Positions 6,070-28,590 of a stretch of DNA of 64,000 nucleotides are shown piece by piece. Numbering within the stretch: the stretch's first letter is position 1; each line of letters opens with the position of its first letter. The DNA is from a virus (Duplodnaviria; Caudoviricetes). The stretch is from IMG/VR virus record IMGVR_UViG_3300042558_004043; one strand, written 5' to 3'. The position numbers and the translations under genes were made by a program. Below the pieces are notes generated by a model, which saw only the letters and a program-made list of their open reading frames with translations, ran no database searches and was not told where the DNA came from.

Positions 6070-6343
6070 TTTGCTTGTCTGGTGAGTATTTATCCTTATA
6101 TTTGTAAAAGATTTGACACCTACAGGTGATGAAAGATACTCGGAAAGTTAAATCAAAAAAAAAATACAAATAAATTTGGTAGATTGAAAAAGTCACCATA
6201 TATTTGTAAAGGATTTGAGACGGACAACGATTAAGATACAAGTCTCGAATCTTAAAAAAAGTTTAAGAAAAATTTGACAGAACGAAAAATTTGACTTAAA
6301 TTTGTAAAACAATTCGGGAATGACCGAAGAAGTTCTTTGAAAA
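6070..6343 (+). promoter_or_regulatory. Three tandem Bacteroidota-type promoters plus a boxB-like hairpin and boxA
   Basis: -7 elements at 6097-6104, 6199-6206 and 6297-6304, each with (T)TTG 19-20 nt upstream. Hairpin TTCGG-GAATGA-CCGAA 6313-6328, then AGTTCTTTGAAAA 6331-6343. Confidence 0.75.
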
Positions 6344-6344
6344 G

Positions 6345-7183
6345 TAAGATTATCCATTCAGTGAAAGTAACCTTCGGGTGATGACAACTGATAAAAGATA
6401 ATGGGCCGTGTATGGTCCTTAAATAAACTACGAAAGTAGGATAAAGTGACCTCCCCCGTGTTGAGGAGGTTGCGGTTTCGAAAGGAACTCGAGTACACAA
6501 GTGGGATATCACAAGACCTTTAGTACCGAGGGTAACACTGTAGGGAAAGTGGTCAGGTGACTTGGCAAAGTGGATTGTCAAGTTGAGGTGGGAACACCAA
6601 CAAGAATAACCCATAGGAATCAAGTAAGAAACGTAGCTCCAACTACACAATTGCGGATTCCAATACCGAAGGGGATTTAAAACCGAAAGGTAAGGTAGAG
6701 AACGAGTGGTGTCGCTACTACCCCTAAAGATGACCTACCAAGGTCTCTTTATGAAGTAATCTGAAAGTATGGAGATAGGGATATCTCACGGAGTAGTTTA
6801 GTATTTCGTCGCCCAAAAGGAGACGGAGCTTAAGGTGGACCACTACTCTGACACATCCACGACACAAATCTAAAATTATGAACAATAATTAAAGGAAAAG
6901 TGTCCATCAGGTTTGAGTGAAAGGTCACTACACAGTCACGGGTTGTCCGTGGCACAGAAAGACCCCAAGTCTAACTGTAGTTTTACGAAAAACCTTTAAT
7001 CCCGCAAGGATGAACTGGGGTGGCAACCTCGGAAAGAGTTAAGTAATAAGAGAGTAACTTAAACCTCAAGGAGTGGTAAACCTAAAAGACCGTGACTGAG
7101 AAATACTTCTCAAAAGGAAGTGGATAAGAAGGGAAACAATAATCCTTCAAAAGGTTCTCACTCAAAGCTGTAATCTCAGGCTT
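6345..7183 (+). ncRNA. GOLLD-like giant structured RNA (~840 nt)
   Basis: GC-elevated, ORF-free region with many GAAA/GCAA-capped stems. Motifs recalled from GOLLD (GAGGTGGGAACACC, GGAGTAGTTTAGTATT, 3' GTAATCTCAG hairpin). A tRNA follows immediately, as is typical for GOLLD. The 5' end is approximate. Confidence 0.72.
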
Positions 7184-7199
7184 AGTTCAACTATTACAT

Positions 7200-7272
7200 C
7201 GCAACTTAGAGCAGAGGCCAGCTCGTCAGGCTCATAACCTGAAGGTCGGAGGTTCGAATCCTTCAGTTGCAA
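7200..7272 (+). tRNA. tRNA-fMet(CAT), initiator type
   Basis: C1:A72 mismatch in CGCAACT/AGTTGCA; D stem GAGC/GCTC; TCAGG-CTCATAA-CCTGA; GGAGG-TTCGAAT-CCTTC. Confidence 0.9.
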
Positions 7273-7280
7273 CAAATCAC

Positions 7281-7303
7281 AGGTGGGGAAACCCACCTTT
7301 TTT
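7281..7303 (+). terminator. Intrinsic terminator ending the GOLLD-tRNA transcript
   Basis: AGGTGGG-GAAA-CCCACCT followed by a T run. Confidence 0.85.
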
Positions 7304-26512: not shown

Positions 26513-26540
26513 ACTTAAAATTAATAAAAAACCAAAAAAA

Positions 26541-28406
26541 ATGGGAGCATTATTAGAATCAGGTCTTGTTGGTAACATCGGTCTTAAGCACCTTAAAGTT
26601 ATCAAAGAAGATACTATCAACAAATGGGACAAATTAGGGTTCCTTGAAGGTCTTAAAGGCCACCTAAAAGAAAATGTAGCGCAGTTATATGAAAACCAAG
26701 CGTCACATTTGATTAACGAAGCTACTTCTGACGGTTCTTCAGGTTCATTTGAAACTGTTGTATTCCCAATCGTTAGACGTGTATTCTCTAAGTTACTTGC
26801 TAATGAAATCGTATCAGTACAAGCTATGAACTTACCAATCGGTAAGTTGTTCTACTTCGTACCAAAGATTCAGGCTTACAATGCGGGTAATCCATACTTT
26901 GACCCACAATTACCATCAAATAACTACGATGGTTCTTCAGGTGGTCACTTGAGTCCAGTTGGGTCACCAGGTGCTTATCCTGGTTCACCGACATCAGGGT
27001 ATACAACTGGTAACCAATTCCAAAAGAACCTTTATGATTTGTTTTATGAAGGTAATGAAGGTCAATTAGACCCTCCAGGTTTGTTTGACTATTCAAAAGG
27101 ACAGTGGTCTGCAGTTACTGTACCCGGTGACGTTCAAGTTTGGTCAAATGGTTCATTGGTTAACTATGGTGGCGAATTTGATGGTTTGAACGTTAGAAAA
27201 GTTATCGTTAAAATTAGCGGTTTTGCTAATGTTGGTAATGGTAAATTAATTGGACCTGATGGTAATGAATACGATTCAGAAACTTTCTTGTCTGATTTAA
27301 GAGTATTTGCAACAAATGATTTCGTTGACGCAGAAAGTCCTTGTTCAGTAGTATTTGACGATGCTGGAGACCCAAATTCATTATTGTTTAGAGTTGTGAC
27401 TCAACAATATGGTCAAGGTATCGTTAGCGGATTAAACACTCGCACTCCAGTTCCATGGCCAGCACAAGGTAACGGAGGTTCATTCAACGATATTTGTAGC
27501 CCAACAGGTGACATTTATTTGGAAGTTGACCTTTCTTGTCCTGTTTGTGCAACTTGTTCAGGTACCACTTTAGATGGTTATACAGGTACGACTATTGATA
27601 CTTTAGGTTTAACTAACTTAAGTGCAGTATTCAGACGTTATAAGAACTTAGAATTCGAAGACCAAATCGGTGAAGTTTCTTTCGACCTTGAGTCTGTAAC
27701 TGTTTCTGTAACTGAAAGAAAGTTAAGAGCTCAGTGGTCTCCAGAACTTGCTCAAGACGTTGCGGCATTCCACAACATTGACGCTGAAGCTGAATTGACG
27801 GCTTTATTGTCAGAGCAAGTAGCTGCGGAAATTGACCGTGAAATTCTTCGTGACCTTCGTAAGGGTGCCGCTTGGAACTTACGTTGGGACTACAACGGTT
27901 GGAGAAGAATTTCTCAAACTACTTCTTACACTCAGAAAGATTGGAACCAAACATTGATTACTGCAATCAACCAATTGTCAGCTCAAATCCACAAGTCAAC
28001 TCTTCGTGGTGGTGCTAACTGGATTGTTGTATCATCTGAGGTTTCTGCAATCTTTGATGACTTGGAATATTTCCACGTTTCAAATGCGTCTCCTGAGCAA
28101 GACCAATACAACATGGGTATTGAAAGAGTGGGTACTTTAGCTGGTCGTTACCAGGTTTATCGTGACCCATACTTCCCACCGAACCAAATATTGATTGGTC
28201 ACAAAGGTACATCGTTACTTGATACTGGTTACATTTACGCACCGTATGTACCACTTCAATTAACTCCAACTATGTACAATCCATTCAACTTCACACCAAT
28301 CAAAGGTATCATGACACGTTACGCGAAGAAGATGGTCAACAACCGCTTCTATGGCAGAATTACAATTGATGGTGTTCGTACATTTGATTTAAGAGAATTG
28401 AGATAA
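26541..28406 (+). CDS. Major capsid protein (T4 gp23-like) with a large insertion domain
   Basis: VFPIVRRVF, VQAMNLPIG, RKLRAQWSPELAQD, EIDREIL, GYIYAPYVPL, MTRYA. Confidence 0.95.
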   Translation: MGALLESGLVGNIGLKHLKVIKEDTINKWDKLGFLEGLKGHLKENVAQLYENQASHLINEATSDGSSGSFETVVFPIVRRVFSKLLANEIVSVQAMNLPIGKLFYFVPKIQAYNAGNPYFDPQLPSNNYDGSSGGHLSPVGSPGAYPGSPTSGYTTGNQFQKNLYDLFYEGNEGQLDPPGLFDYSKGQWSAVTVPGDVQVWSNGSLVNYGGEFDGLNVRKVIVKISGFANVGNGKLIGPDGNEYDSETFLSDLRVFATNDFVDAESPCSVVFDDAGDPNSLLFRVVTQQYGQGIVSGLNTRTPVPWPAQGNGGSFNDICSPTGDIYLEVDLSCPVCATCSGTTLDGYTGTTIDTLGLTNLSAVFRRYKNLEFEDQIGEVSFDLESVTVSVTERKLRAQWSPELAQDVAAFHNIDAEAELTALLSEQVAAEIDREILRDLRKGAAWNLRWDYNGWRRISQTTSYTQKDWNQTLITAINQLSAQIHKSTLRGGANWIVVSSEVSAIFDDLEYFHVSNASPEQDQYNMGIERVGTLAGRYQVYRDPYFPPNQILIGHKGTSLLDTGYIYAPYVPLQLTPTMYNPFNFTPIKGIMTRYAKKMVNNRFYGRITIDGVRTFDLRELR

Positions 28407-28425
28407 TCAATATCTTAGTAATATT

Positions 28426-28455
28426 AAAAAGGTCAGAGAAATCTGACCTTTTTTA
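28426..28455. terminator. Bidirectional terminator after the major capsid gene
   Basis: AAAAAGGTCAGA-GAAA-TCTGACCTTTTT. Confidence 0.9.
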
Positions 28456-28462
28456 TTTTATA

Positions 28463-28590
28463 AAGGTGAGACTTGTATCTTAATCGTCTTCCATCTCACC
28501 TTATTGATTAGAATTGTTTCACTCTAATCTTATTTTAATATGTAGACGAAACCTCATTATGATTCGACATAAATTAGTTTGATAGGACAG
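28463..28590 (-). ncRNA. Candidate multi-hairpin small RNA convergent on the capsid gene
   Basis: Minus-strand TAAGTTTG at 28595-28602. Hairpins at 28463-28502, about 28506-28529 and about 28543-28570. The 28463-28502 hairpin shares 20 identical nt with 6227-6246. Confidence 0.4.

Follow-up and report, generated by a model that had tools for sequence, protein, structure and literature searches.

Why does nearly the same 20-nt loop recur on two hairpins with different stems, at distant positions and on opposite strands of one phage genome? The question arises from a 64,000-nt stretch of DNA (the window) in the IMG/VR viral record IMGVR_UViG_3300042558_004043 (Duplodnaviria; Caudoviricetes). 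An original prediction, made from the sequence alone, had taken the two hairpins, here called E2, for an undescribed protein-binding RNA or single-stranded DNA (ssDNA) hairpin serving in antitermination, as a sponge or as a packaging signal. Both hairpins are indeed present:

6210-6253 (+): E2 copy A, AGGATTTGAGAC-GGACAACGATTAAGATACAA-GTCTCGAATCTT; 5' arm 6210-6221, 20-nt loop 6222-6241 (GGACAACGAUUAAGAUACAA), 3' arm 6242-6253; 68.5 bits with model R1
28502-28463 (-): E2 copy B, AAGGTGAGAT-GGAAGACGATTAAGATACAA-GTCTCACCTT; 5' arm 28502-28493, loop 28492-28473 (GGAAGACGAUUAAGAUACAA), 3' arm 28472-28463; 67.8 bits with R1

The loops agree at 18 of 20 positions, and the outer stems are unlike yet paired in both copies (12 bp with two G·U pairs in A, 10 bp with one U·G pair in B). 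The 16-mer common to both loops (ACGATTAAGATACAAG) matches the window exactly twice, even when two mismatches are allowed; 0.06 matches are expected by chance, and none of 100 shuffles contained two or more. It is also present twice in the whole viral record of 107,982 bases, for which CheckV gives a completeness of 37%, and which therefore belongs to a jumbo phage of roughly 300 kb. Folded as RNA, the motif strand reaches -14.6 (A) and -13.4 kcal/mol (B), with z-scores of -4.2 and -3.5. The opposite strands fold more weakly (-7.5 and -11.0, respectively), because the G·U pairs turn into A·C mismatches. Neither copy has the make-up of an intrinsic terminator: the loop measures 20 nt, copy A is followed by a run of A residues, and copy B by UUUAUAAAAU and then by a separate terminator.

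Based on the results below, we conclude that E2 is an undescribed, phage-specific family of RNA hairpins in phages of Bacteroidota, with strong covariation and a fixed loop. Concerning its function, we consider it about as probable as its negation (roughly 0.5) that E2 is a portable RNA module of free stem and fixed loop, in which the loop would dock a trans-acting factor and RNAs with several hairpins would be multivalent.

The E2 hairpin family

Copy A is identical or near-identical in 17 related viral loci, and variants of copy B with compensated stems (GGTGGGT/GCCCACC, ACCCACC) occur in L016, L033 and L019. A scan of IMG/VR with the 16-mer yielded 35 viral loci, 24 of them with a hairpin. 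Since a copy in the 635-kb megaphage LR745206.1 (27.9 bits with R1) differs at the mid-loop base, any base was then allowed at this position, N (AACGATTNAGATACAA), which gave at least 120 loci; the family counts below rest on the matches listed. After removal of duplicates, 132 contexts were left, namely 91 hairpins with at least five contiguous pairs round the motif and 41 others, which look like chance matches and lie mostly in coding sequence. The family thus comprises at least 91 distinct hairpins in at least 97 viral loci, with at least 45 different inner stems of 5-13 bp, up to 19. Further copies in related phages, for which the original prediction had called, are therefore conserved far beyond the genome of the window.

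The loop of about 20 nt is near-invariant, RGRN-AACGAUU[C/U/A]AGAUACAA. It opens with four to five purine-rich unpaired bases (5' segments GGGA-A, AAGG-A, AGGC-A, GGAC-A, AGAU-A), continues with ACGAUU-N-AGAUACAA, and the 3' arm begins directly after. In the 91 listed hairpins, N is C 42 times, U 30 times, A 18 times and G once, and it is evenly spread in the 41 contexts without a hairpin.

The compensatory stems noticed in the two copies extend to the family, with 45 inner stems listed. In the R1 alignment (58 hits), all ten modelled pairs change on both sides, and 89.6% of the cells can pair, compared to 64.6% after shuffling and 35-54% with the partners slid. Of the 762 stem pairs in the listed hairpins, 114 (15%) are G·U on the motif strand, and the fold is for this reason limited to that strand. 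Rfam 15 had no match over either site of the window, at the gathering threshold or at E-values up to 10, and none at all in six loci with multi-hairpin E2 RNAs; by this measure the element is undescribed, as had been supposed.

E2 spans phages from 31 kb to 635 kb. Per genome, there are two copies in the record of the window, one each in the relatives G001 and G002, one or two in G005 and three in LR745206.1. The 31-kb phage, complete according to CheckV (100%), carries a two-hairpin E2 RNA among small early open reading frames (ORFs). No cultured phage with E2 was found: BLAST of the 51-nt hairpin against GenBank phages gave no match, and the sole known carrier there, LR745206.1, is metagenomic. 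A strict 21-nt motif matched 2 cellular genomes among 185,579 species, both metagenome-assembled genomes of Firmicutes with doubtful stems. A known host repeat, the outcome that would have spoken against the original prediction, is ruled out by these numbers. Its suggestion of a packaging signal finds no support, given one to three copies per genome, tandem copies and positions inside tRNA arrays.

Transcription signals and genomic contexts

In 44 of the 91 listed hairpins, a -7 box of the type TAnnTTTG ends 0-10 nt before the first paired base, and in 19 a U-run follows the stem. Copy A is a case of the former; it lies in a series of host-type promoters spaced by about 100 bp (-7 boxes from 6097, 6198 and 6297), upstream of a GOLLD RNA:

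6097-6104 (+): -7 box TATATTTG of promoter P1, which precedes E1
6110-6154 (+): E1, a sibling hairpin behind P1; stem GATTTGAC/GTTAAATC, loop including GGUGAUGAAAGAUACUCGG
6176-6205 (+): promoter P2, Bacteroidota-type, which drives copy A; TTGGTA, 17-nt spacer, -7 box TATATTTG at 6198-6205
6274 onward (+): promoter P3; TTGACA, 17-nt spacer, TAAATT; -7 box TAAATTTG at 6297-6304
6274-6343 (+): GOLLD leader, with P3, a small hairpin at 6313-6328 and boxA GTTCTTTGAAAA at 6332-6343
6345-7298 (+): operon cargo, consisting of GOLLD RNA (Rfam match 6789-7182, 321 bits), followed by tRNA-Met (7200-7273) and, at 7281-7298, an intrinsic terminator

In Bacteroidetes, the consensus of the primary sigma factor is TAnnTTTG at -7 and TTTG near -33 (PMC7366714). 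Since the promoters of the window match it, the host is almost certainly a member of Bacteroidota, judging by sequence. A cassette of the P2 type (aaatttggtRgaWtgaaaaagtcaccRTATATTTG) also drives tRNA genes and E2 in the megaphage LR745206.1. Transcripts from P2 open with E2 and can reach GOLLD, as no terminator lies in between and the first one is found at 7281-7298; copy A can thus be said to start a GOLLD-leader transcript, as originally proposed. The boxA nearest to copy A (6332-6343) is 79 nt away, beyond P3, and copy B has none.

Three further features were observed near this operon. A full-length Rfam match to transfer-messenger RNA (tmRNA) at 7821-8198 (-), with 93 bits, adjoins GOLLD and tRNA-Met; it was not called by ARAGORN and looks like a phage-encoded tmRNA. 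The small-RNA region is flanked by an ORF at 4486-4938 (+) with a cREC_REC domain (cyclic-phosphate RNA-repair receiver, E 2e-19) and by one at 10618-12666 (-) for a ClpB/ClpC-like double AAA+ ATPase.

Copy B sits in different surroundings, between the capsid gene with its terminator and an endonuclease gene:

26541-28406: gp23-type major capsid gene (Pfam Gp23, E 6e-74)
28426-28453 (both strands): symmetric terminator with a 12-bp stem and U-runs on both strands
28506-28529 (-): M hairpin of the copy-B small RNA, GATTAGA-gtgaaacaat-TCTAATC, preceding copy B
28595-28602 (-): candidate -7 box TAAGTTTG for the copy-B small RNA, read from the sequence
28637-29212: non-specific endonuclease gene

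As had been noticed, copy B lies beyond the capsid terminator on the other strand, at a distance of 10 nt. This terminator ends the capsid mRNA (+) and could also end an antisense small RNA (-), of which copy B would be the 3' hairpin. Such an RNA would be about 170 nt long (28590-28420), with its start site placed according to the candidate -7 box; in the related locus L016, a clear TATATTTG is found 45 nt upstream of the hairpins. A 186-nt minus-strand stretch around copy B folds with a z-score of -5.9. The M stem covaries as well (GGTTAG/CTAATC in L016, GGTTGG/CCAATT in L019), and the layout H1-M-H2 is also found in L106, L049, L062 and L076. In one T4-like clade, an E2 small RNA follows the capsid gene and converges on a conserved ORF of 137 aa (36 loci; e.g., L016:5681-6091 (-), L049:7239-7649 (-) and L045:3451-3858 (+), all just after the capsid gene). 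Copy B represents a reduced version of this post-capsid small RNA, with M, one E2 and the terminator. The 137-aa ORF is missing from the record of the window. Of the complete relatives, G001 has the ORF and lacks the small RNA, and G002 has neither, which makes copy B accessory.

Two other genes of the structural region may be mentioned. A bS21 homolog of 63 aa at 23189-23380 (-), preceded by two TAnnTTTG boxes, lies within the structural module of the plus strand. The ORF at 31645-43641 (+) encodes 3998 aa, has Laminin_G_3 (residues 526-667) as its sole Pfam match and is probably a giant fiber or surface protein.

In related phages, E2 occurs in three kinds of context. The first is the head of a transcript: in LR745206.1, the promoter cassette precedes a tRNA, E2 and a tRNA-like RNA, and tRNA-Met and GOLLD lie downstream of all three. 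The second is the tRNA array. E2 heads such arrays in L091, in L050 (20 tRNAs downstream) and in LR745206.1, with a similar placement in L122 and at a second site of LR745206.1; in L086, tRNA-Met starts 4 nt past E2, and cleavage by RNase P should therefore release the hairpin. The third consists of separate small RNAs, in which a promoter is followed by an AT-rich E2 and then by a GC-rich E2 with a U-run; in some or many of them, an M hairpin whose loop is A-rich stands between the two. Two-hairpin RNAs of this type are found in L049, L059, L076, L078, L108, L109, L112, L119, L134 and L152; three E2 units are present in L103 and four in L079. The units within one RNA differ in their stems.

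Some arrangements in these loci were recorded in their own right. Around 419.7-420.3 kb of LR745206.1 (L038:1500-2110), a promoter cassette of about 45 nt is repeated before each small RNA gene; these genes are a tRNA with a long arm and an unusual anticodon call, E2, and a tRNA-like RNA missed by ARAGORN. The leaders here include a hairpin and AAGTTCTTTGAA. Downstream of E2 in L091 (6320-6650), L050, L270 and L086, we found a conserved unit: another promoter is followed by the conserved aaaaagagagaaNaacttttaatatata, by a brief ORF-like segment and by a terminator, beyond which lies the tRNA array.

The original prediction had left open whether the hairpin acts as RNA or as ssDNA. RNA is favored, because of the upstream host-type promoters, the U-run terminators in relatives, the tRNA-precursor positions and the strand-specific G·U pairs. 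An element working at the DNA level, be it a promoter-plus-stem-loop cassette whose copies are kept alike by recombination, the ends of a 22-kb segment that inverts or is excised, an N4-like ssDNA hairpin promoter (read by a virion RNA polymerase) or a nicking site, is very improbable. T4-type phages do possess repeated promoter-plus-stem-loop cassettes (PeSLs) which mediate gene shuffling (PMC2839356, PMC4122927), and the phage of the window has a gp23-type capsid gene. Further, close relatives differ in whether they have copy B, which PeSL-like shuffling may explain, and the two copies are mutually inverted. However, recombination would keep whole cassettes, and here the loop alone is kept while the stems differ and compensate. 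Owing to its G·U pairs, the fold is specific to one strand; copies in tandem, terminators with U-runs and places within tRNA precursors are features of RNA; and the gene order is unchanged in relatives without copy B. An N4-like hairpin promoter was rejected separately, as the 3998-aa ORF has a lectin-like Laminin_G_3 domain only and no polymerase domain.

Role of the conserved loop

Taking E2 as RNA, phages of Bacteroidota would express it strongly from host-type promoters, as the head of a transcript, as a unit of a tRNA precursor or as a separate small RNA; for copy A, the route would run from P2 through E2 and GOLLD to tRNA-Met. The fixed loop would be recognized by a factor acting in trans, most probably a protein and one of the host. 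It is read in this way because an unpaired loop of 16-20 nt stays fixed on a free stem, with one to four such units per RNA. RNAs with several hairpins could then form multivalent binding platforms, i.e., sponges, and single copies might tag a transcript with the factor or be cut out as free hairpins. We infer the binding, the identity of the factor and the effect of its binding from the fold, strand, family, transcription signals and contexts reported above. On these grounds, we favor a protein-binding, multivalent (sponge-like) module over antitermination in cis, antisense pairing by the loop and action as a DNA site. The sponge role named in the original prediction fits the small RNAs of relatives with two to four hairpins.

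Several observations weigh against this reading. The window copies are single hairpins, and the argument from multivalency rests on relatives. Because the copies were collected by their exact loop sequence, the loop looks more invariant than it is; where second hairpins were located by position, the edges of their loops vary in some loci (ATACGAUU, AGAUACUA, AGAUACCA), with CGAUU-N-AGAUAC constant among them. In locus L151, two E2 copies directly precede boxA (AGTTCTTTGAAAA), the second leading into GOLLD; this is exactly the position of a nut-type boxB and speaks for action in cis by these copies at least. A loop of 20 nt could also pair with a host RNA, and no binding partner was found among the candidates examined.

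The position of E2 in L151 leads to the rival ranked second, in which E2 would act in cis for antitermination, as a signal like nut/boxB or as a leader hairpin of the LoaP or put type. Along with boxA, Nus factors and perhaps a phage NusG paralog, the hairpin of the nascent RNA would make the polymerase resistant to termination on operons that are not translated, such as tRNA arrays and GOLLD. The order boxB-boxA-boxC in rrn leaders and the binding of N to boxB are established (PMC10250234). In agreement with such a role, 44 of the 91 listed E2 hairpins are at or near the +1 of a promoter, and each of the four large relatives tested has a gene of the NusG family, of about 175-190 aa (G001:C1:250261-250575; G002:C1:69637-69951; G005; LR745206.1:485898-486203). 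The sibling E1 fits better still. Its loop 16-mer (GATGAAAGATACTCGG) occurs in more than 118 viral loci with covarying stems, and E1 is a member of a second very large undescribed hairpin family. It usually lies between a TAnnTTTG promoter and boxA (GTTCTTTGAAA), the position of boxB in rrn-like leaders; a boxA-like sequence was found within 40 nt of it in 34 of 77 contexts, and the GOLLD leader of the window has its boxA as well.

On the other hand, only 2 of the 91 listed E2 hairpins have a boxA within 15 nt, and another promoter separates 27 of them from the cargo, as in the window, where P3 comes after copy A and before boxA. Many copies belong to small RNAs that end in a terminator or lie between tRNAs, and copy B faces away from any operon. 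The complete 31-kb phage carries E2 without NusG, and E2 is rarely near E1 (one or two matches in 100 loci selected for E1). The antitermination role originally proposed thus agrees with a minority of the contexts. For E2 as a whole we regard it as unlikely; it possibly applies to a subset of E2 copies and more probably to E1.

A loop acting by base pairing is improbable, and more so than antitermination. The partner could be the other copy (A-B kissing), a phage mRNA or a conserved host RNA such as rRNA, tRNA, a CRISPR repeat or tracrRNA; a host RNA as partner would make E2 a sponge of the antisense type or an RNA anti-CRISPR. An unpaired stretch of 16-20 nt is an ideal antisense surface, copies on opposite strands mean that same-strand transcripts would bear complementary loops, and a mismatch could be tolerated at the variable N. 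Anti-CRISPRs made of RNA are known, as are phage mimics of guide RNAs (PMC10651486; bioRxiv preprints). However, contact between A and B is not general, as the complete relatives G001 and G002 carry copy A only, and invariance over many phage lineages would need an invariant target. Complementarity to the loop in the 108-kb record, outside the elements themselves, was at most 10 nt, with no more 9-mer matches than for shuffled loops. The 16S, 23S and 5S rRNAs of E. coli, used as a stand-in for universally conserved segments, matched the loop in antisense no better than expected by chance. When metagenomes were scanned for three periodic copies, no CRISPR array came up, only unrelated 24-nt and 64-nt tandem repeats with ends GATACTT or GATACTA, and E2 stems are not conserved as in a CRISPR repeat. 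The metagenome contigs L278-L289 (one of 709 kb, AT-rich) hold long arrays of the 24-nt repeat (GAATACGATTAAGATACTTGAAGA), with 13 bases in common with the E2 loop by chance. Both A-B kissing and an invertible 22-kb segment were rejected, as complete relatives have copy A only and the same gene order.

Returning to the protein-binding module, we examined phage-encoded candidates for its partner. The 137-aa ORF was dismissed as an obligatory one: it is absent from G000 and from the complete, E2-bearing G002, and no E2 lies beside the ORF in LR745206.1. It has no Pfam family, and a search with its structural model (pLDDT 78) using Foldseek returned nothing at E ≤0.001; the best Z in VIA was 5.3, with weak RelE/ParE/HigB/RegB rows at Z 2.8-4.4. 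We consider it a syntenic neighbor. A ToxI-like RNA of a type III toxin-antitoxin system would show tandem identical repeats of about 36 nt beside a gene for an endoribonuclease toxin; the E2 units of one RNA differ in their stems, and the neighboring 137-aa ORF gives the weak ribonuclease-type rows named above. A NusG-family gene was not found in the 108-kb record of the window; bS21 homologs are present in all five large related records tested as well as in the window. Both NusG and S21 were discarded as partners, being absent from the complete 31-kb E2 phage. No candidate for an N-like arginine-rich protein was seen beside E2, although such peptides are too short and divergent for the tools used. 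E2 thus depends on none of the phage genes tested, and since the complete 31-kb phage manages without NusG and bS21, a host factor is more likely as the E2 partner than a phage-encoded one.

If so, E2, and perhaps E1 too, could be a trans-acting decoy, whose loop imitates a conserved surface of a host RNA and soaks up a host factor in the course of takeover or anti-defense; lytic phages of Bacteroidota would flood the cell with such small hairpins. We put this forward as a tentative extension, with odds well short of even. The sole resemblance to a conserved cellular RNA which we found is a sense-strand likeness of the E2 loop to the 790 loop in helix 24 of 16S rRNA, with a score of 18 compared to 16-17 for chance rows. 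Common blocks appear in the same order in E2 (AAC-GAUU-N-AGAUAC), E1 (GAU-GAA-AGAUAC) and the 790 loop (AAC-AG-GAUU-AGAUAC). We give this likeness low weight and treat it as a lead rather than a result.

E2 among known RNA elements

The decoy reading, if true, would make E2 the first RNA sponge described for phages of Bacteroidota. To our knowledge, Bacteroidota lack Hfq, and we know of no global RNA-sponge system described in Bacteroidota or their phages. E2 is also tied to two questions, namely the function of GOLLD and the reason why phage tRNA islands carry extra small RNAs. As a 45-nt module with a fixed 16-nt loop it is a ready bait, which could name a new RNA-binding factor or an axis of takeover or defense; E1, whose link to boxA leaders is clearer, offers another.

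Among known systems, the nut sites of lambda and the boxB-boxA-boxC leaders of rrn operons resemble E2 in having a small hairpin just past a promoter, beside boxA, on transcripts which escape termination. In lambda boxB, as presumably in E2, specificity resides in the loop and not in the stem, and E2 in L151, like E1 often, stands directly before boxA. However, boxB of nut is a 15-nt hairpin with a 5-nt GNRA-like loop, while E2 has a 20-nt loop of unrelated sequence. Unlike nut, most E2 copies have no adjoining boxA; some are found between tRNAs or in small RNAs that end in a terminator, and no N-like protein is known here. The LoaP leader hairpin and the put RNA of HK022 are leader structures acting on the polymerase, the former with a NusG paralog and the latter without a protein. 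NusG paralogs in large E2 phages recall LoaP; nevertheless, E2 is unrelated to both in sequence and structure, and it is found without a phage NusG and where action in cis is impossible.

Non-tRNA structured RNAs co-transcribed with phage tRNAs are known from T4 species 1 and 2 (rnaC/rnaD) and from GOLLD and ROOL. E2 shares this setting with them but is a single hairpin of about 45 nt, with no sequence or Rfam relationship to any of them. The PeSLs of T4-type phages likewise combine repeated host-type early promoters and stem-loops in cassettes which are present or absent among close relatives, and the window has the succession P1-E1, P2-E2 and P3 at distances of about 100 bp as well as a gp23-type capsid. 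In PeSLs, however, the stem-loops are G/C-tract terminators overlapping the promoter, with about 100 bp conserved; the stem of E2 is AT-rich or variable, lies past the -7 box, and the loop alone is conserved.

CsrB and RsmZ, finally, are sponge RNAs which, like the E2 small RNAs of relatives, have their own promoter and terminator and several hairpins with the same loop motif, the last of which doubles as terminator. In relatives of the window phage, two to four E2 hairpins are combined with a promoter and a U-run, whereas the window copies are single. CsrB and RsmZ present A(N)GGA in 7-22 copies. GGA occurs in many but not all 5' loop segments of E2 (compare the variants AGAU, AGAC and UGAC), and E2, for which no CsrA-like partner was identified and no search aimed at CsrA was made, differs in its 16-nt motif, in the two to four copies per RNA of relatives and in being encoded by phages.

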